A stretch of 64,000 nt of DNA, from positions 64,001 through 128,000 of the forward strand of contig JBGUGD010000039.1 in NCBI GenBank assembly GCA_041697335.1, read 5' to 3'. Shown piece after piece: positions 4,745-34,663 of the stretch. This stretch comes from Vampirovibrionaceae bacterium NZW_1234 (lineage in GTDB: Bacteria; Cyanobacteriota; Vampirovibrionia; Vampirovibrionales; JAGQHJ01). Below the pieces are notes generated by a model. It saw only the letters and a program-made list of their open reading frames with translations, made no database searches and was not told where the DNA came from. Position numbers and translations under genes: made by a program. Position 1 is the first letter of the stretch. Each line of letters begins with the position of its first letter.

Positions 4745-4906
4745 ATGACCATGCCGAATCCTTTTGTTGAAATGACCATGCCCAATCCTTTTGTCGAAGA
4801 TGCATTTGATCCTCAAGCCTATGAAAGCGAATCCTCTACAGACCTACCGTGGTCTATGGGTGTGATGGGTTTATGTGCCCTGATGCTGTTAACCTTTTTT
4901 ATGTAA
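4745..4906 (+). CDS. 53-aa small protein with duplicated MTMPNPFVE and C-terminal hydrophobic helix
   Basis: AGGAGA RBS; hand translation MTMPNPFVEMTMPNPFVEDAFDPQAYESESSTDLPWSMGVMGLCALMLLTFFM; terminator downstream. Confidence 0.65.
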   Translation: MTMPNPFVEMTMPNPFVEDAFDPQAYESESSTDLPWSMGVMGLCALMLLTFFM

Positions 4907-5403: not shown

Positions 5404-5439
5404 AAAAGCCAGGTTTACATGAAATAAACCTGGCTTTTT
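5404..5439. terminator. Bidirectional terminator
   Basis: AAAAGCCAGGTTTA / TAAACCTGGCTTTT inverted repeat between convergent genes. Confidence 0.8.
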
Positions 5440-5445
5440 CAGTAT

Positions 5446-6354
5446 CTATAAAGGTTCCTCACCAGAAACTGCCCCTATAAAGCAAGACCCCAGCACAATA
5501 CCATTCTCAAGTAGCTGAGTGAGCATGGGGATAAATTGGCTATAGAAAAGTCCTGGGGTCAACCCGGGCATCTGCGACGCGATGTGGGAATAGACCGGCT
5601 GAATCGAATCCAAGTATGACAAAAGGGCATTAGGGTGGGACTGAAGCGAATTCAGCCAAGCTGCCAGAACCGAAGAAACCTCAAACGATCGGCAGCGAAA
5701 CGGTCTGTCAAACGACCGATACATCCATACCAAGGTTGATCGGGGGGATAAAAAATCGGGCGAAAGCCTTGTTTCAGGATCAGATTTTAACAGTGAGACC
5801 AAAGAAGGAATGGGATAGGACAACTCCAATAGCGCTGAGGCCTGATTCAGGACCGGTACCATCAATGCAAGCTGGTCCTCACTTTCTGGCATAACCTTCA
5901 AGCGAGATTCCGGATAAGTTGTATCTGGATAACTAAGTAGACAAGCCTGTACCCACTCATAACGTGCTAAATCAGGCAAATAGGGCCAACGTTCCTGAAC
6001 AACCGCATGCCCGGCTAAATAATCAGCAAAAGCTTCCCCAACGGACATCAACCGATAAGAGCGGCTGGCCGGAGTCCAATCATAATCCTCGAATACCTCA
6101 TCCCAAACATCAACCAATACCATTGCCGTCAAGGAAAAAATTGACCTTAAGGTTTGTTCTACATTGGCCTGGAGCATATAAGCATATTGACGGTAATGCT
6201 CAAGTACCGGCTGCTGCATCGCCTCTTTTTCTCTATCTGATAGAGATGATTGAGCCCAAAAAACAGCAAGAGCATCTGATGACTTGAGTGCGAGCTTGCC
6301 CTCAGAGGTTGTCATCAGTTGCTTAAAGATCTGTTGAAATTCTTGAAGCGTCAT
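5446..6354 (-). CDS. DUF2063-family partner protein of the MNIO enzyme (HvfC/BufC-like)
   Basis: L.EFQQ.F N-terminus; GEAFADYL and WPYLPDLARYEW; overlaps the DUF692 stop (ATGA). Confidence 0.85.
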   Translation of the reverse strand: MTLQEFQQIFKQLMTTSEGKLALKSSDALAVFWAQSSLSDREKEAMQQPVLEHYRQYAYMLQANVEQTLRSIFSLTAMVLVDVWDEVFEDYDWTPASRSYRLMSVGEAFADYLAGHAVVQERWPYLPDLARYEWVQACLLSYPDTTYPESRLKVMPESEDQLALMVPVLNQASALLELSYPIPSLVSLLKSDPETRLSPDFLSPRSTLVWMYRSFDRPFRCRSFEVSSVLAAWLNSLQSHPNALLSYLDSIQPVYSHIASQMPGLTPGLFYSQFIPMLTQLLENGIVLGSCFIGAVSGEEPL

Positions 6355-7241
6355 TTTTGGTGAACCCCGAGCGGAAGGCTCACACCGTTGGATTTTCCTG
6401 ATGAATGACAGATAGAACGAATTTGATCCAATTCAGAGAGTAACGAATCAATGGGAGGCAGATTGTCATCTCGTTCAAGTAATATACCTTTGGCACAAGT
6501 CCGCTGAATTACCACTGCAAGTAAATCCCATACTTCCGAACAGACCGGCTCGGCATGCGTGTCGACAACAAGGTGCTTCTGTCGCAAGTGACCTGCCACG
6601 TGAAGCTGAACCACACGCTCAAGAGGGATAGCATTTAGAAATTCACCTGGGTCATAGCCATGATTTTGAGCATTAACAAAAATGTTATTCACATCAAGCA
6701 GCAAACCACAGTCGGAACGCTCGAGAATTTCAGCTAAAAACTGAGCCTCGGTCAGCTCTTGTGGCCCCATGGTTGCATAATACGAAATGTTTTCAATTAA
6801 AAACGGACGTTCCAGCCGTTCCTGAACAACCCGGATACGAGGCACAATATGATGCACCGCCTCCCAGGTAAACGGCAACGGAAGCAAGTCGTTCAAATAA
6901 ACACCATCCACGGATGAAAAACAGAGATGATCGCTAAACCATGGCGGATCAATGCGCTGAAATAACATGGCCAAATCCCGGAGATATTCTTCGGACAGCG
7001 GATCAACACTTCCGATGGAGAGATTAACGCCATGGGACACCATGGGGAACCCATAACTCCTGGCCTCTTCCAGCATCCAGATACTGTGTCCACCTTTGCC
7101 CATAAAATTTTCAGGCACAATCTCCAGCCAGTCAATGGTTGAGCGATGAGCCATGATCTCATCGAACAACCCATGTCGCAACCCCAAGCCAACACCAAGG
7201 TGCGGAAGATGCCTCATTTGCGTTTTAAAAAGACTCTCCAC
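6351..7241 (-). CDS. DUF692 multinuclear non-heme iron oxidative enzyme (MNIO; MbnB/TglH/ChrH/HvfB family)
   Basis: GVGLGLR, WLEIVPENFM, HGVNLSIGS, SDHLCF, IENISYY, LLLDVNNIFVN..NHG, LHVAGH, DTH, LLERD; GTG start after GAGGTG. Confidence 0.96.
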   Translation of the reverse strand: MESLFKTQMRHLPHLGVGLGLRHGLFDEIMAHRSTIDWLEIVPENFMGKGGHSIWMLEEARSYGFPMVSHGVNLSIGSVDPLSEEYLRDLAMLFQRIDPPWFSDHLCFSSVDGVYLNDLLPLPFTWEAVHHIVPRIRVVQERLERPFLIENISYYATMGPQELTEAQFLAEILERSDCGLLLDVNNIFVNAQNHGYDPGEFLNAIPLERVVQLHVAGHLRQKHLVVDTHAEPVCSEVWDLLAVVIQRTCAKGILLERDDNLPPIDSLLSELDQIRSICHSSGKSNGVSLPLGVHQK

Positions 7242-7319
7242 AAAAACACCTCACAACAGTGACCCTGCAATTTCATTGTCCTTCAGCACACCCGAGAAAG
7301 CAATAACGGCCGGTGGCTA

Positions 7320-7353
7320 AAAACCCTACACCAGATAAGTGGTGTAGGGTTTT
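7320..7353 (-). terminator. Intercistronic stem-loop after the precursor gene
   Basis: 14-bp stem AAAACCCTACACCA / TGGTGTAGGGTTTT, 6-nt loop. Confidence 0.7.
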
Positions 7354-7407
7354 AGACGAATTCACCTGCCTGTTGTTGCTAAAAACAGTGCAGACAGATG
7401 GTGAAAA

Positions 7408-7866
7408 TTAGTGCGCTTTTTTAGCGGCGCACTTTTTTTCCATGGATTTGGCTGCAGCACATCCTTTATCAGCATTCTTAACGGCTGCACACTTTTTCTC
7501 GACATGCTTGCCAGCAGCACATTTTTTCTCAGCAGACTTGCCGGCGGCGCACTTTTTCTCGGCAGTTTTAGCAGCGGCACATTTCTTTTCGGATTTTTTA
7601 GCGCCACACTTGGAGCCACACTTGTGCTCGGACTTTTTGGCGCCGCACTTGGAACCACATTTGTGCTCGCTCTTAGAACCACAAGAGCCTTTACCACACG
7701 CAGCATCGCCACCCTTTTCAGCAATCAATTGGCTGTTGGGGATTTCGCTCATCTGAAATAAACCGGACATGGAAGCATCTTCGGCCATGGCCATAGAGGA
7801 CAACATACCAGCACCCAATAACGACATACCCAAGGCTAACGAAGCGGCCTTTTTGGACTTTTTCAT
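7408..7866 (-). CDS. Secreted Cys/Lys-rich MNIO RiPP precursor (HvfA/oxazolin-like), 152 aa, 12 Cys
   Basis: AAAGGAG RBS; Sec signal MKKSKK...SMAMA; CG and CAA repeats; directly upstream of DUF692-DUF2063. Confidence 0.9.
   Translation of the reverse strand: MKKSKKAASLALGMSLLGAGMLSSMAMAEDASMSGLFQMSEIPNSQLIAEKGGDAACGKGSCGSKSEHKCGSKCGAKKSEHKCGSKCGAKKSEKKCAAAKTAEKKCAAGKSAEKKCAAGKHVEKKCAAVKNADKGCAAAKSMEKKCAAKKAH
7411..7671 (-). repeat. Coding tandem repeats: 2 x 13 aa (SEHKCGSKCGAKK) and 6 x 10 aa (EKKCAAxKxx)
   Basis: Read directly from the translation; 39-nt and 30-nt DNA periodicity. Confidence 0.9.
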
Positions 7867-7919
7867 GGAATTGCTCCTTTTCAAAACTGTGAAATACTAC
7901 TACTTTTACTCTACAGGAC

Positions 7920-7947
7920 GTAATACTCCCCCTGTTGGGAGTATCAC
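7920..7947. promoter_or_regulatory. Palindromic operator candidate (CsoR/RcnR-like G/C tract)
   Basis: GTAATACTCCC-cctgtt-GGGAGTATCAC, 10/11 symmetric, about 55 nt upstream of the precursor ATG. Confidence 0.55.
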
Positions 7948-8109: not shown

Positions 8110-8553
8110 ATGTCCCAAGTCACTCTGAACAATGCCCCGGACCTTCGAAGCAGTTATCCCAGAAGTCCCAATGATCTGGTGGGGGACTATATTTTACTGG
8201 GTCGAATTCTTGATAAATGCCGAGCCGTTCTTGCTGGAACAAATGGAGAGTATAATTATAACTGTCCGCTGGATCGACGGTTTTTCGACTTCACTGGAGT
8301 AGATGCCAACGCGTTCAAAGACCAGGTTGCCCAAGGAAAAACCGATGAGGAGATGCTCGCCTGGGTCAAAGCCAATAGTGCCCCCAGAAGTGAAGATGAA
8401 ATTCTCGCATGGAGCCATGAAAGTCGCTGGGCTCAACCTACAGAACCGGCCATGCGCGCCCACTTTGAACGAACACGTCGGGAAATAGCTCCTGACAGGC
8501 CTTACATCCAATCCTGGTTCCAGTTACTCGATACCGAAGAAGGTCGTTACTAA
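8110..8553 (+). CDS. DUF5069-family protein
   Basis: DL...YPRSP....G.Y..LGR..DKCRA..AGT.GEY.YNCPLD..FF.F.G motif; AAAGGA RBS. Confidence 0.8.
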   Translation: MSQVTLNNAPDLRSSYPRSPNDLVGDYILLGRILDKCRAVLAGTNGEYNYNCPLDRRFFDFTGVDANAFKDQVAQGKTDEEMLAWVKANSAPRSEDEILAWSHESRWAQPTEPAMRAHFERTRREIAPDRPYIQSWFQLLDTEEGRY

Positions 8554-8632: not shown

Positions 8633-11482
8633 TTAAGAAAACGTCACCAGCTTCTTTACACCATCAACCGCCATCGCCTTAAGCAAATGGTAGAGCGATG
8701 CAAACTGTTGCCGGTTGTAACCGGCAGTTGCGGAGTCAACCAATCCCAAAATGGCATTATTACGACGCCGTGCATTTTTCAACATCGTCCCCAATTCGTC
8801 TAACGTGCATTGTCCGGCATCGGGTGTATCGGAGTTGTCAATCAAACGTTTTGCCACTTGAGCAGCTTCTCTGCTAAAGCGATGCCCTACTTCCTGCGAG
8901 AAAACCCTGGCTGCATCATCCAACTGGAACTGGGTCCTCATATCCGAGGGATAGGACTTGGCAGAAGGAAACCGAGAGAAGCCTCGCATCGAATCGTTAT
9001 GAACCGGATCTTTTTGAAGAAACTCCGGTTGCTCCAAAAGTTTCTCAAACGCATCATCAAGTTCTTGGCGGGTTGGCAACCCCTCTTTCACTGTTCCATC
9101 AGGTTGTTGAATTTTTAACGTGGTCACTAAACCAACCCGACGCGCTGTTTCCGCATCAAGCCGATAACCTGGCGTATTTAACTGCCAGCCCAGCACATTG
9201 TTAATCAGCTTTTTAGACCCGTTGGCCAACCATTTAAAGTTTGGCGGAAATTCATTAAAATACTTGTCCAAATCACCAATGCGCTGCTTGCCGTTCAGAA
9301 TCATGGCATAGGCCAAAGGCTTACCGGCTTTTTGAGCCAAGCGTTCCGTGCCACCCCAGGCAGGAAAGATACCTAAATTCACTTCAGGTAGTGTAAAGGT
9401 GGCTTTATCACATGCAACAATCTCATCGCATGCCAATGCAAGCTCTACACCTCCACCATAGGCATCGCCTTGAACTTTGGCAATCGTCTTAATTTTGGAA
9501 TTGGCAATGGTATCCATCACATAGCGGCCCAATTGTACCGCGCGATCAAAGTCTTTAGCATCTTTCAGGTTTTTCAGCTCATCCAGATCAGCGCCGCCAG
9601 AGAATACCTTACCACCATTGGTTTCGAGGACAATGGCTTTAATCTTATCCGGTTGTTGGTTCGCCTCTTCGACAGCCCGCTTCAAATCCAACAAGGTCTG
9701 AGAATCCAACGTATTGAAGTTATTCCCACCCATAAAGTTTTGTACTTTATCGATAGTGATGGTTTGGACCCCCGTTTTTGGATTAAAGCTGGTGGATACA
9801 TGGCTGACCTTCATTTTGTCAGAACTAAGTTCAGGGACTCGGAACGTCTCACCATAGCGTGTGCGAATGGACTCTAACGCAGAAGCCACCATGGCAGTAT
9901 GACTCAGCGGCTTTTTTGATTTTCCGAGCGACAGCCAAGAGGATTTTGGTGCTGGGCTATCTTGCTGCTGCATCCATTGAAACGGCCTAAAAGACCAGCT
10001 AAAACCTACCTGGACAATATTATCGACATCTTTGGCGTCACATAAACCTTCATCCACAATCTGCATGGCAGAGGCACAAAGAGCACCGCGAAGTCGATCT
10101 CCCACAAGCTTTTCCAACGCCTTTTTCTCCGCCGGTGTTTTGGGTTCAGGCTTATCCAATTTCGTCATACCATAGGGGAAATATTCTGCTTCAGCTTCCA
10201 GCTTCTTAATTTCCAGATCCAGTCTATCTACACCCTGCTTTTTCTGGTCTAATTGGTGCTTTTCTCGAAGCGCTTGCTTCTCAGAGTATGGTGCCTTCGA
10301 TTTCTCGAGGTTGTACTCCAGTAGAGCGACATCATACTCCCGCTGCTTAGCAGCTCGATCCTCACGAAGCTGCTTTAAGGGTCCACGCTTGATACCCTGA
10401 ACCCGTTCAAATTCTTTTTGAAGCAACTCGGAGACCTTGTAATAGGGGCCCAACTCTTCCATATTTTTGGCAATTTGTACTCCTAAATCACCATATTTCT
10501 TGAAGAGTTTAAAGGGCGGCATCAATTTTTCTTCGGCCACAACAGGCATATCTGCCAAATTGCCCCACAGAATCTTGGAAGCTATTTTATCAATGGTTTT
10601 TGGCCCAGCCAGTCCTTCTTCATAAAGCCGCATTGCTTCGGTAGCCACTGTAATCAACAAACGATTGGCGACAAATCCGGCGGAGTCCTTCTTCACCAGA
10701 ACCGGAATTTTTCCGACAGCTCTGGCATATTTCATGGTTTGCTCAACCACCTCGGGCTTGGTTACACCAGGAATAGGAACAACTTCCACCAACAGGTTCT
10801 GACGCGCAGGATCAAAGTAATGAAGCCCAATAGCACGCTCAGGATGCTTTAGAAGCTTGGCTACTTCCGAGACGCGTAACGAAGATGTGTTAGTTGCAAT
10901 TATAGTATCTTGATCAACACGGCTTTCTAGGTTCTTCAGGGTCTGCTGCTTCAAAGGCAAGTTTTCATTAATCGCTTCAATGACCAGACCCACCGAAGGA
11001 AGATCTTCACGTCGATAGCCTCCTTGTTCTGGAGTTAGGCTGAGACGCTTACTATCTAATGCACGGCCTTCGGTCTCCTTGGTAGCACGAAAGTACTCTC
11101 CAGGCTTAATAACGCCTTTAGAAGCACCAATTGCCATTTCGCGGCGCGCTTCAAATACAGCATTCAGAGCCACCTCTTCGGACATATCAGTCGTCAGACG
11201 ATTAAAACCGGCAGTAGCAGCATTTTGCATAATGCCTTGTCCCATTTTGCCGTTGCCGCCTAAAATGAGGACATATCGATCTCGGCGCATGGCCTCCAAC
11301 GAGCCAGGCTGAACCGTAAAGCGCCCAAAGCGCAATGCCTTAGAACCTCTAGCAATTCTCACCTTGGAAAACCCATCTGATTGAGGCTCTAGGAGCATTG
11401 ATGTATCAGATACAGAATTATTTTTCAGGCCTTTCGCAACCCCCTGCGCAAATAAAAGCCTCCCCTTCGCTTGAATGTCCAC
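8633..11482 (-). CDS. 3-hydroxyacyl-CoA dehydrogenase / enoyl-CoA hydratase fusion (HADH first, crotonase last)
   Basis: GGNGKMGQGI, IEAINENL..K, ATNTSSL, GLHYFDP, GFVANR; then FSGGADL, AYGGGVELALACD, LPEVNLGIFPAWGGTERL. Start uncertain (GTG 11482 after GGGAGG, or ATG 11398). Confidence 0.88.
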   Translation of the reverse strand: MDIQAKGRLLFAQGVAKGLKNNSVSDTSMLLEPQSDGFSKVRIARGSKALRFGRFTVQPGSLEAMRRDRYVLILGGNGKMGQGIMQNAATAGFNRLTTDMSEEVALNAVFEARREMAIGASKGVIKPGEYFRATKETEGRALDSKRLSLTPEQGGYRREDLPSVGLVIEAINENLPLKQQTLKNLESRVDQDTIIATNTSSLRVSEVAKLLKHPERAIGLHYFDPARQNLLVEVVPIPGVTKPEVVEQTMKYARAVGKIPVLVKKDSAGFVANRLLITVATEAMRLYEEGLAGPKTIDKIASKILWGNLADMPVVAEEKLMPPFKLFKKYGDLGVQIAKNMEELGPYYKVSELLQKEFERVQGIKRGPLKQLREDRAAKQREYDVALLEYNLEKSKAPYSEKQALREKHQLDQKKQGVDRLDLEIKKLEAEAEYFPYGMTKLDKPEPKTPAEKKALEKLVGDRLRGALCASAMQIVDEGLCDAKDVDNIVQVGFSWSFRPFQWMQQQDSPAPKSSWLSLGKSKKPLSHTAMVASALESIRTRYGETFRVPELSSDKMKVSHVSTSFNPKTGVQTITIDKVQNFMGGNNFNTLDSQTLLDLKRAVEEANQQPDKIKAIVLETNGGKVFSGGADLDELKNLKDAKDFDRAVQLGRYVMDTIANSKIKTIAKVQGDAYGGGVELALACDEIVACDKATFTLPEVNLGIFPAWGGTERLAQKAGKPLAYAMILNGKQRIGDLDKYFNEFPPNFKWLANGSKKLINNVLGWQLNTPGYRLDAETARRVGLVTTLKIQQPDGTVKEGLPTRQELDDAFEKLLEQPEFLQKDPVHNDSMRGFSRFPSAKSYPSDMRTQFQLDDAARVFSQEVGHRFSREAAQVAKRLIDNSDTPDAGQCTLDELGTMLKNARRRNNAILGLVDSATAGYNRQQFASLYHLLKAMAVDGVKKLVTFS

Positions 11483-11636
11483 GATGCATAGCCTCCCCAA
11501 AAACTGTGTATATTCTGTTATGACTTTTTCATTATCTGTAATCAATCTCAAAACGAAAGTCGCTCGTTAAGAGTTGTTACAGACCGATGTATTTTCCTGA
11601 GCCTCGACGCCAAAGAAAGAAACTCAGGCGTTCCAC

Positions 11637-32783: not shown

Positions 32784-34663
32784 CGCTCCGAGACATGGCT
32801 GCTTTGGGACATGGGCGAATCCACATAGGTGTCTTCGTCTTGCATGGTCGAGACAAAGGGCATCGGGCCTTCCAATTGCATTTTGTTAATACGGTGGCCA
32901 TCCATTTCCAGGACCGTAAACATTAAGTCTTCAAACGGCACCTGATCGCCTTCCTTGGGTTCCCGGCCCAACAATCCAAAGACAAAGCCCCCAATGGTAT
33001 TGAACTCTTCATCGGGAATGCCCAGTTTAAAACGCTCATTGAGCTCGTCAATATTTATCCGCCCACTCATCACAATGCGGTTGGGCTCAGGCTGATCCAG
33101 AACATCCTGATCTTCATCGTACTCGTCCCAAATTTCACCCACGATCTCTTCTAACAAGTCCTCCAGGGTAACCAGGCCAGCAAAGCCGCCGTGCTCATCA
33201 GCCACCATGGCGATTTGAATTTTCTTGCGCTTGAATTCTTCCAGCAAATCGCTCACCGGTTTATTTTCGGGGTAAATATCAAACTCACGAACCAGTCCCT
33301 GAAGAGGCACGTCCATTTCACCGCGACGCAGGTACTCAAACACATCCTTGGCATGGATTGCACCGATCATATTGTCAATATCTTCCTGATAAACCGGAAT
33401 CCGGGTGTGGCCGGTTTTAACAATAATGTCTACCAAGTCGTTCAAGGACTCCGATACTTCAATACAATCCACATCGGTCCGAGGGATCATAATGTCACTG
33501 ACCACGGCGTGGGTAAATTCATAGACATTTTTGAGGATACGCTCTTCGCGCTGTTTAAGCACATTGCGTTCCCGGCCCTGTTCAATCAACCGATAGAACT
33601 GATCACTCCATTCAACGTTGGTCTCATCGGCCAAAACCTCGATGATAACCTCTTTGACATTAGATACCCGAGCCTGTACCCGATCCCGAATCCGGTCCGT
33701 CAGGTCATCCACATCTTTCACCAGAATGTCCGGGTCAACCTCGACCCGCATGTGAACCACAACCCCGGACATCCCGTAATCAATGGTCTTCAAGTCATGC
33801 ACTTGCGACACACCCGAAAGACTCAAGACAAAGTCGCGAATCTTCTGCTCAACCTGTGGGCTGGCCGAAGAGCCGGTCAAGCCCTTGCTGTTATGCAGGA
33901 ACAAGTAAATCGCCAAACTCAGCAGCATCAAACCGATCAAAATAGAAGCGGAGGCGTCAGGGACATGGGCGTAGGCTTGAGGCAAAATCCCAATTACTGT
34001 TCCCACTTGAGAAATGGTAATTGCCACCAGGGCCACAATCGCACCCAGAAGCGCAATGGTGTCTTCATAGTAAACAAACCGAGTAGTGGGGCTAATAATT
34101 GTGCGTACATGCTTACCTGCCGTCACCACACGACGCCACCACGAGGACTCGGTCAGTTCTTTCTCGTTTAACACAGCCGTCGCGGCAACATTGACAGCCC
34201 CAATCTCAAGAACAATACTGACCAATAGCACAACAGCCGATAACCAATACCCTTCCAGAGGTTGAGGGTGAATAAAGCGGTTGATGCCAATATACATGGA
34301 CATACTGGCCAATATGAGCATTAACAGACTGGCCAGCATCGCCCAAAGCGTGGTCTCCAACCCATACCCAAAGGGATGCGTTTTATCTGGCGCACGGCTG
34401 CCTTTGTAAAGACCAATCAATAAAAAACCGCTGTTTAACGAATCAGCCATCGAGTGCATGGCTTCAGAGAGCATGGCACTCTGGCGCCCAAGGATACCGG
34501 CTATCAGTTTCACCCCACCAATGGACAGGTTGGCGGCCAAAGCCACTAAAACGGCGCGCTTACTGTGCCAAGTGTCTGACTTGGCGGACGAAGGGAGAAC
34601 AACTGTTTCAATACTGCGTTGTGACCGTAAGGGACTACTGTCAGAGGAGTCAGAACTGGCCAT
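32780..34663 (-). CDS. Cation diffusion facilitator fused to a CBS pair and CorC/HlyC domain
   Basis: EAMHSMAD, HPFGYG, dimerisation domain; then IMIPRTD, GHTRIPVY, VADEHGGFAGLVTLEDLLEEIVGEIWDEYD, TIGGF. Confidence 0.9.
   Translation of the reverse strand: MASSDSSDSSPLRSQRSIETVVLPSSAKSDTWHSKRAVLVALAANLSIGGVKLIAGILGRQSAMLSEAMHSMADSLNSGFLLIGLYKGSRAPDKTHPFGYGLETTLWAMLASLLMLILASMSMYIGINRFIHPQPLEGYWLSAVVLLVSIVLEIGAVNVAATAVLNEKELTESSWWRRVVTAGKHVRTIISPTTRFVYYEDTIALLGAIVALVAITISQVGTVIGILPQAYAHVPDASASILIGLMLLSLAIYLFLHNSKGLTGSSASPQVEQKIRDFVLSLSGVSQVHDLKTIDYGMSGVVVHMRVEVDPDILVKDVDDLTDRIRDRVQARVSNVKEVIIEVLADETNVEWSDQFYRLIEQGRERNVLKQREERILKNVYEFTHAVVSDIMIPRTDVDCIEVSESLNDLVDIIVKTGHTRIPVYQEDIDNMIGAIHAKDVFEYLRRGEMDVPLQGLVREFDIYPENKPVSDLLEEFKRKKIQIAMVADEHGGFAGLVTLEDLLEEIVGEIWDEYDEDQDVLDQPEPNRIVMSGRINIDELNERFKLGIPDEEFNTIGGFVFGLLGREPKEGDQVPFEDLMFTVLEMDGHRINKMQLEGPMPFVSTMQDEDTYVDSPMSQSSHVSER

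Follow-up and report, generated by a model that had tools for sequence, protein, structure and literature searches.

The window (the whole 64,000-nucleotide stretch analysed here, positions 64,001 to 128,000 of contig JBGUGD010000039.1 of Vampirovibrionaceae bacterium NZW_1234) carries on its minus strand a three-gene operon, i.e. a Cys-rich precursor gene, an MNIO (DUF692) gene and the gene of a DUF2063 partner, which probably makes a Lys-Cys captophorin. Most or all of the 12 precursor Cys residues would then become 5-thiooxazoles, those at the Cys-Ala-Ala sites included, and the exported product would bind surplus copper. The Lys-Cys precursor group is defined in PMC13097082 (bioRxiv 10.1101/2025.11.18.689057). 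The operon belongs as an ordinary member to a known peptide class, with a repeat style particular to its lineage, and nothing in it indicates a new class or a new chemistry.

Precursor, maturation enzyme and partner

The operon reads precursor, 14-bp hairpin, MNIO, overlapping and translationally coupled partner, and terminator (Table 1), and both this order and the MNIO match to NF050167 agree with the oxazolin- or bufferin-kind operon proposed in the initial annotation. The precursor is also as described there, with a Sec-like signal, ACG and SCG, two copies of SEHKCGSKCGAKK and six 10-residue repeats, and the stem-loop behind it is indeed followed by DUF692 (PF05114, E 1e-101). The Cys residues (57, 62, 70, 74, 83, 87, 96, 106, 116, 126, 136 and 146) are spaced at 4-5 residues in one half of the precursor and at 10 in the other, where the (E/D)K(K/G)CAAxKxx units have a period of exactly 10. 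Lys precedes nine of the 12 Cys, and the precursor contains the repeated 5-mer with Lys-Cys that marks the Lys-Cys group (EKKCA five times, EHKCG twice and GSKCG twice). The annotation's statement that half of the sites are C-A-A holds as a count (6/12; KCAA five times, GCAA once). All six of these units have an acidic residue at -3 and five of them Lys at -1, which are the residues that FonBC favours. Net charge is +20 and Lys makes up 22% of the residues. Synonymous-site differences exist among the repeats, and positions 7428-7687, the larger part of the repeat array, are covered with zero differences by one contig from a public run, which may be the source sample itself. The best-matching sequencing runs are labelled hot-spring or microbial-mat metagenomes (possibly the source data), and no RNA run is among those listed as matching.

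Table 1. Features of the captophorin-type operon and its flanks (window coordinates)
Feature	Position	Strand	Remarks or basis
Precursor gene	7866->7408	minus	152 aa, 12 Cys; Lys-Cys captophorin type
AAGGAG ribosome-binding site of precursor	7874..7879	minus	sequence
Predicted Sec signal peptide, residues 1-28, cleavage between AMA and E	7783..7866	minus	sequence, hydropathy
Conserved LFQMSEIPNSQLIA segment, putative recognition leader for the partner (RRE)	7720..7761	minus	precursor alignment
First Cys pair ACGKGSCG, counterpart of KCGEGKCG	7678..7701	minus	alignment A1
Two 13-aa SEHKCGSKCGAKK repeats, 4 Cys, residues 66-91	7594..7671	minus	sequence
Six 10-aa (E/D)K(K/G)CAAxKxx repeats, 6 Cys	7411..7590	minus	sequence
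14-bp perfect-stem hairpin between precursor and MNIO	7320..7353	minus	folding
MNIO (DUF692) maturase	6351..7241	minus	GTG start 7241 or ATG 7217
DUF2063/RRE-fold partner, 302 aa	5446..6354	minus	start overlaps MNIO stop (ATGA)
Intrinsic-terminator-like 15-bp hairpin, operon end	5404..5438	minus	sequence
C/G-tract palindrome, 10/11 arm pairs, 8 perfect; CsoR-like candidate operator with non-canonical spacing	7920..7947	.	sequence

Being Cys-rich, directly upstream of the MNIO and equipped with a predicted Sec signal, the protein has the features of a captophorin precursor. The signal was called from sequence and hydropathy: it has a basic N-terminus, a hydrophobic core (11-residue Kyte-Doolittle mean up to 1.86) and no lipobox Cys, and the cleavage site was judged by eye. 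No confident model of the precursor fold was obtained (pLDDT 47.6), and a helix at residues 6-19 of the low-confidence model falls in the signal region. The precursor is not a Buf_EGKCG/HvfA member in the strict sense, as it contains no EGKCG and matches neither NF050137 nor NF050188, and homology to EGKCG precursors was found by profile only. This homology spans the signal, the leader and the first Cys pair, with an hhalign probability of 97% (E 1e-10) against an EGKCG precursor of Thalassolituus (L061). The putative LFQMSEIPNSQLIA leader segment aligns with NPFASAELSQGYKVA of an EGKCG precursor; F37 is invariant in 21 aligned precursors and E41 and A49 are kept in at least 90%, while in alignment A1 C57 is invariant and G58 and C62 almost so. 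In the ESM Atlas the top cluster for the precursor is the HvfA family (score 0.90), which at low recognition is a lead only.

The MNIO exceeds the NF050167 BufB cut-off (314 bits, cut-off 310) and falls below that of NF003818 HvfB (292.5 bits, cut-off 360). Thirteen residues, counted from ATG 7217, are invariant in 42 aligned homologues (H62, D96, H97, E142, D175, N177, N178, H206, H210, D219, H221, E248 and D250), so that it is a bufferin/oxazolin-group MNIO with its iron-site residues and catalytic Asp intact. Judging from motifs and an alignment with 3BWW, these residues are likely to include the counterparts of the HvfB site-3 ligands N175, D242 and H244 (10.64898/2026.07.17.739211) and of the catalytic Asp249 of FonB. 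By the same route (ERDF motif, 3BWW alignment) the window enzyme appears to have His and Asp where FonB has Arg16 and Phe250. Among the 120 nearest homologues the gatekeeper position that probably corresponds to Phe250 (251 in the window enzyme) is Q in 83, T in 14, L in 13, N in 6, S in 2, and I and D in one each; the single D is the window protein itself, and Phe occurs in none. The closest named MNIO record, at 71% identity, is titled Vampirovibrionales. Ahead of this nearest MNIO, across an antisense open reading frame, L032:2938-3270 encodes a peptide with a signal and a leader-like segment whose mature part has no Cys; it is possibly a decayed precursor or a non-Cys substrate.

The partner is full length and has the TglI/NGO1945 fold, i.e. 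the MNIO adjoins a DUF2063 protein with an RRE domain, as captophorin operons of the PME1 kind do. Its AlphaFold model (pLDDT 90.9) finds TglI 8HI7 (Foldseek E 5e-8) and NGO1945 3DEE (E 4e-5), and its profile likewise matches NGO1945/3DEE. Applied strictly, the signature used in PMC12452194 might place it in PME-type 2. The intergenic region ahead of the MNIO folds with z = -3.09, and the 14-bp hairpin may raise precursor mRNA relative to enzyme mRNA.

No DoxX or sigma genes were found among the scanned open reading frames adjoining the operon, and the three DoxX genes of the genome are all on other contigs. The annotation was correct on this absence, but its use as a sign of novelty does not stand, as fon and mmr are also three-gene clusters, fon being without DoxX (PMC13097082, PMC12538549), and sigma genes accompany Buf1 clusters and not Buf2 (PMC12452194). 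SigF is described as controlling both buf operons, buf2 in trans (10.1101/2024.03.18.585515).

Relatives and lineage

The survey of MNIO loci covered this genome together with 60 relatives and comprised 31 loci. A signal-bearing Cys-repeat precursor lies directly upstream of the MNIO at 25 of the 31 loci inspected, the other six (two with signal-less peptides, one with DoxX in the precursor place and three in which none was found) being left out of the counts. Common to these precursors are the segment LFQxxEV...IAE and, as the first Cys pair, xCGxGxCG, and four of 11 scanned relative or homologue precursors pass the NF050137 HvfA-family domain cut-off. The residue after Cys is Gly in 120 and Ala in 38 of 170 cases, and relatives mix CG and CA at equivalent positions, one homologue having C-A at 7 of 9 sites. 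KCAA occurs in the precursors of 8 of 23 relatives, although a single genus accounts for seven of these eight and the occurrences are thus not independent. The Lys content stressed in the annotation is real, but it is matched by the precursor of a relative (L013), which also has 12 Cys, with 21% Lys and a net charge of +17. Two metagenome homologues, P0002 and P0003, are KCAA arrays known from peptide sequence alone. A metagenome scan with the precursor alignment gave 344 candidates, none of which was confirmed, and one with the MNIO gave 47 loci, all at no more than 55% identity.

Several surveyed loci differ more widely. Precursor cores in L005, L011, L015, L025 and L016 are diverse: at one extreme they are rich in His, with up to 18 residues, and at the other they are very acidic, with a net charge of -54. 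L025 apparently has a second, internal copy of the leader segment. In L003, L004 and L098, signal-less 55-aa peptides ending CSRSRSWFGCCPCYGR stand ahead of the MNIO, and a 589-aa extended MNIO follows a YACxA-repeat protein; these peptides and the repeat protein are candidates for other precursor types.

As the annotation had supposed, the host is of Melainabacteria type, a non-photosynthetic relative of cyanobacteria: the closest named MNIO record has the Vampirovibrionales title given above, and close homologues are labelled Vampirovibrio, Melainabacteria or Obscuribacterales. A search of 401 genomes of the class yielded an MNIO in 165. It is present in 98 of 104 genomes of family f5 and, with this query, in none of 189 of family f7; most of the f5 loci inspected (L082-L105) combine a precursor of Cys-Lys GSCKG repeats with Gln as the gatekeeper residue. 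In a tree of 72 rows (two long-branch rows and 13 near-duplicates having been removed) the window MNIO groups with class members, apart from 19 non-class rows (97/88), although its exact position is weakly placed (90/66). Horizontal import was considered and is not indicated, the operon having a GC content of 47-49% (genome 50%) and its MNIO clustering with class members.

In the published catalogue, Dataset S1 of PMC13097082 contains two Vampirovibrio MNIO-PME1 pairs, whose precursors were not found by accession in Dataset S2. A Melainabacteria MNIO system, MelA1/MelH (PMC13056109), is of another type, and our literature search found no study of Vampirovibrionales captophorins. The locus adds to the Lys-Cys captophorins a subfamily in Vampirovibrionales; precursors of this subfamily often escape standard models and were not found in the published catalogue.

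Processing, role and control

The partner would grip the putative LFQMSEI leader. By analogy with FonBC, HvfBC and BufBC, the diiron MNIO would use O2 to take four H from each Cys, and the product would absorb near 305 nm. Sec export and cleavage after AMA would then release an unstructured chain of 124 residues (~12.6 kDa) into the periplasm. There, in the manner suggested for fontiphorin, it may take up several Cu(I) ions while remaining without a fixed fold. The annotation had suggested that the locus could show relaxed or site-selective enzyme specificity. For the Cys-Ala sites a relaxed enzyme is not needed: FonBC processes the synthetic KCA substrate EAKCAEGKCA, i.e. it accepts Lys-Cys-Ala (PMC13097082). 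By the rules given for FonBC, position 1 is acidic, position 3 is Lys and the Gly at position 5 can be replaced by Ala only (PMC13097082), and the EKKCA repeat of the window precursor conforms to them. FonB-F250D still formed 5-thiooxazole and accepted more substrates (PMC13097082); the Asp in the window MNIO therefore favours broad processing over new chemistry. We rejected a supposed mismatch of a Cys-Lys enzyme with a Lys-Cys substrate, since position 251 is variable in the class and the Cys-Lys precursors of the class pair with Gln.

The sites could nevertheless be treated selectively, i.e. the paired Cys-Gly sites would become thiooxazoles while the six lone Cys-Ala-Ala sites kept free thiols or formed disulfides, and one chain would have metal sites of two kinds. 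Partial modification has precedent, as two unmodified N-terminal Cys of HvfA form a disulfide according to the oxazolin revision that reassigned the ring as 5-thiooxazole (10.64898/2026.06.05.730506), and the outer Cys of Buf1 also remain as a disulfide (PMC12452194). A one-repeat FonA substrate was unmodified and a two-repeat one modified (bioRxiv 10.1101/2025.11.18.689057), and the difference in Cys spacing between the precursor halves fits such a division. However, the acceptance of KCA by FonBC, the acidic -3 and Lys -1 kept in the CAA units, the mixing of CG and CA at equivalent places in relatives, and the loosening rather than tightening of FonB selectivity by Asp at Phe250 all argue for uniform treatment, and we regard selective modification as distinctly unlikely. 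Its extension to a periplasmic metal sponge of two chemistries, with thiooxazoles on the six Cys-Gly and thiols on the six Cys-Ala-Ala sites and possibly under CsoR control, is similarly improbable, and that at least one of site selectivity and CsoR control applies is doubtful.

For MNIO enzymology the locus offers a natural test of whether an enzyme treats solitary Cys-Ala sites at 10-residue spacing in the same way as paired Cys-Gly sites; the exchange of Phe for Asp that was introduced into FonB by mutagenesis is native to this enzyme. As novelties in themselves the annotated features fare less well. A count of KCAA in Dataset S2 of PMC13097082 comes to 693 (30 sampled mid-list were single sites in near-identical proteins), and this dataset also contains 10-aa-period arrays mixing KCG and KCA, e.g. 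WP_296406674.1. Our literature search found no characterised natural KCAA or lone-CAA array and no paper joining KCAA with MNIO. With KCAA precursors catalogued and a synthetic KCA substrate tested, the loss of novelty that the annotation tied to characterised KCAA precursors has come about only in part. Neither KCAA nor the lineage names matched in the two spreadsheets of PMC12452194, although the supplementary PDFs of PMC12452194 and PMC13097082 may list further motifs. The number of sites is not new either, as EGKCG precursors with up to 58 Cys, and hundreds of unclassified signal-bearing precursors, are described in PMC12452194.

Every MNIO-PME1 product characterised so far contains 5-thiooxazole, and these products generally bind Cu (bioRxiv 10.1101/2025.11.18.689057; 10.64898/2026.06.05.730506). 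A chalkophore, i.e. a copper-uptake compound as the annotation envisaged, is the less likely role, the class being described as sequestering excess copper. The same chemistry and export might also serve a job other than copper detoxification, be it the handling of another metal, the storage of copper, or a response to oxidative or envelope stress. The EGKCG cluster mmrABC of Microbulbifer was not induced by copper and gave little protection, its authors declining the word 'protective' (PMC12538549), which counts against assuming a copper role. In addition, the operons of relatives often lie between a class I tRNA-ligase gene and YceI and not among copper genes, many carry the upstream motifs given below, and the paralogous operon of this genome is followed by an AhpC/TSA-family gene. 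We consider such a job unlikely, as Cu binding has been reported for bufferin, oxazolin, fontiphorin, gonophorin and bulbicupramide alike, and a CsoR gene with the copper fingerprint adjoins the paralogous operon.

This second captophorin operon (G000:C16:29297-32823, i.e. L066:7298-10824) has the order CsoR-family gene, precursor of 129 aa and 8 Cys, MNIO, DUF2063 partner, AhpC/TSA-family gene. The precursor has GCMA, GCFG and LCAG followed by 10-aa SCAA (Ser-Cys-Ala) repeats, a perfect TGTCA-N6-TGACA site lies upstream of it, and the MNIO has Gln at the gatekeeper position. The two MNIOs are 55% identical and fall in separate tree groups, both among class members. With two related enzymes and differing repeats in one genome, specificity could be mapped by exchange between the operons. 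The CsoR-family gene is the only one in the genome and has the Tyr-Cys/His/Cys/Glu copper fingerprint described in PMC4235346. In L066:11535-11562 (near 33539 of the same contig) the perfect palindrome CGAGGTATACCCCAATGGGTATACCTCG, near the CsoR consensus (TAC-X8-GTA), precedes a small predicted lipoprotein gene; it may alternatively be a terminator of the gene before it.

Direct control of the window operon by this single Cu(I)-type CsoR through the palindrome, which lies 54-81 nt upstream of the precursor, is unlikely, and CsoR control is not described for captophorins in the literature examined. The palindrome is the sole match in the genome to TAC.CCC..GGG.GTA, and none of 1000 shuffles matched, but this means little because the pattern was written after the site had been seen; a perfect arm of at least 8 bp arose in 33 of 1000 shuffles. 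Its spacing is TAC-X14-GTA, which departs from the TAC-X9-GTA dyad around G/C tracts of the CsoR type 2 consensus (PMC3902906). The search for the same site drew a blank ahead of 24 other precursors, of 25 copA genes (one partial match) or of 21 csoR genes (one partial match; 2/21 regions misplaced). A divergent DUF5069 gene (8110-8553, plus strand) shares the intergenic region, so the palindrome could serve either gene. Among relatives, GGAAC-N15-17-(C)GTC, which we take to be an ECF-sigma-type motif, occurs in 12 of 25 precursor upstream regions (L006, L012, L013, L015, L017, L018, L021-L023, L025, L027 and L028; shuffled mean 0.24) and has 17 strict intergenic matches in the window's own genome, several ahead of proteins with signal-like N-termini. 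TGTCA-N6-TGACA occurs in four of the 25 (L002, L008, L017 and L019; shuffled mean 0.22, maximum 3), and a gene for a Crp-family regulator lies ahead of the precursor in L030 and apparently also in L019.

Several further observations weigh against the captophorin reading. The partner is below the family cut-offs (DUF2063 20.1 of 27.2 bits, HvfC 54.7 of 142), so the DUF2063 assignment made in the annotation holds through its fold and its relatives, 24 of 25 aligned partners matching PF09836, but not through the window protein's own score. AKCGA repeats were handled by FonBC only once, and the accessible text of the captophorin preprint contains no substrate with lone Cys 10 residues apart (bioRxiv 10.1101/2025.11.18.689057). 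The cross-check gave the CsoR operator at 7920-7947 no support and leaves it a weak lead only, CsoR does not adjoin the MNIO in relatives for which both positions are listed, and the window operon has no ECF-type promoter motif. Finally, no Pfam or NCBIfam precursor model matches the precursor, which fits the idea that the peptide is no substrate at all: it would be a Cys-rich metal binder that stays unmodified, or else a histone-H1-like protein, rich in Lys and Ala, with no link to the MNIO beyond its upstream position. An H1-like model does match weakly (17.2 bits, cut-off 80). This match is confined to the low-complexity part. The precursor has its signal, conserved leader and first Cys pair in common with EGKCG precursors, and the same position recurs at 25 loci, which makes a non-substrate very improbable.

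Elsewhere in the window, a short open reading frame at 4745-4906 (plus strand) opens with a tandem duplication (MTMPNPFVE twice). A 972-aa fatty-acid oxidation protein (8633-11551, minus strand) has its hydroxyacyl-CoA dehydrogenase domain ahead of the enoyl-CoA hydratase domain, the reverse of the domain order in FadB/FadJ.

Comparison with known systems

The operon resembles fontiphorin fonABC of Fontimonas thermophila in being a minimal three-gene cluster without DoxX, with a Lys-Cys repeat precursor, an MNIO that keeps FonB Arg15 and the catalytic Asp249, and a DUF2063/RRE partner. It differs in having 12 sites rather than seven, EHKCG, GSKCG and EKKCA units rather than EGKCG, lone Cys at 10-aa spacing and, by the probable correspondence given above, His for Arg16 and Asp for Phe250. 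With oxazolin hvfABCX of Haemophilus influenzae it shares the Sec signal, repeated Lys-Cys units, the same MNIO iron-site residues and the RRE partner, whereas it lacks an adjacent DoxX, its precursor misses NF050188 and NF050137, and its MNIO stays below the HvfB cut-off (292.5 < 360).

Three uncharacterised KC-style precursors in Dataset S2 (rows WP_296406674.1, WP_374494645.1 and WP_299878392.1) are like the window precursor in their signal, NPF-type leader and Lys-rich 10-aa units mixing KCG, KCA and KCAA; however, they have DGKCA or EGKCA and not EKKCA, their leaders are worded differently, and they are without the paired SEHKCGSKCG block. The bufferins Buf1 and Buf2 of Caulobacter vibrioides (10.1101/2024.03.18.585515, PMC12452194) share the A-B-C gene order, Sec export and the 5-thiooxazole class, and the window MNIO passes NF050167 and shows Asp where it is described in Cys-Lys MNIOs. 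Unlike Buf1 (DUF2282, four conserved Cys), the window precursor has no Pfam DUF2282 match at E up to 0.1, and unlike Buf2 and the Cys-Lys group, with their folded domain of 6 or 12 Cys, it has neither a Cys-Lys dipeptide nor a predicted fold, its 12 Cys being arranged in tandem repeats and not in a duplicated 6-Cys domain.

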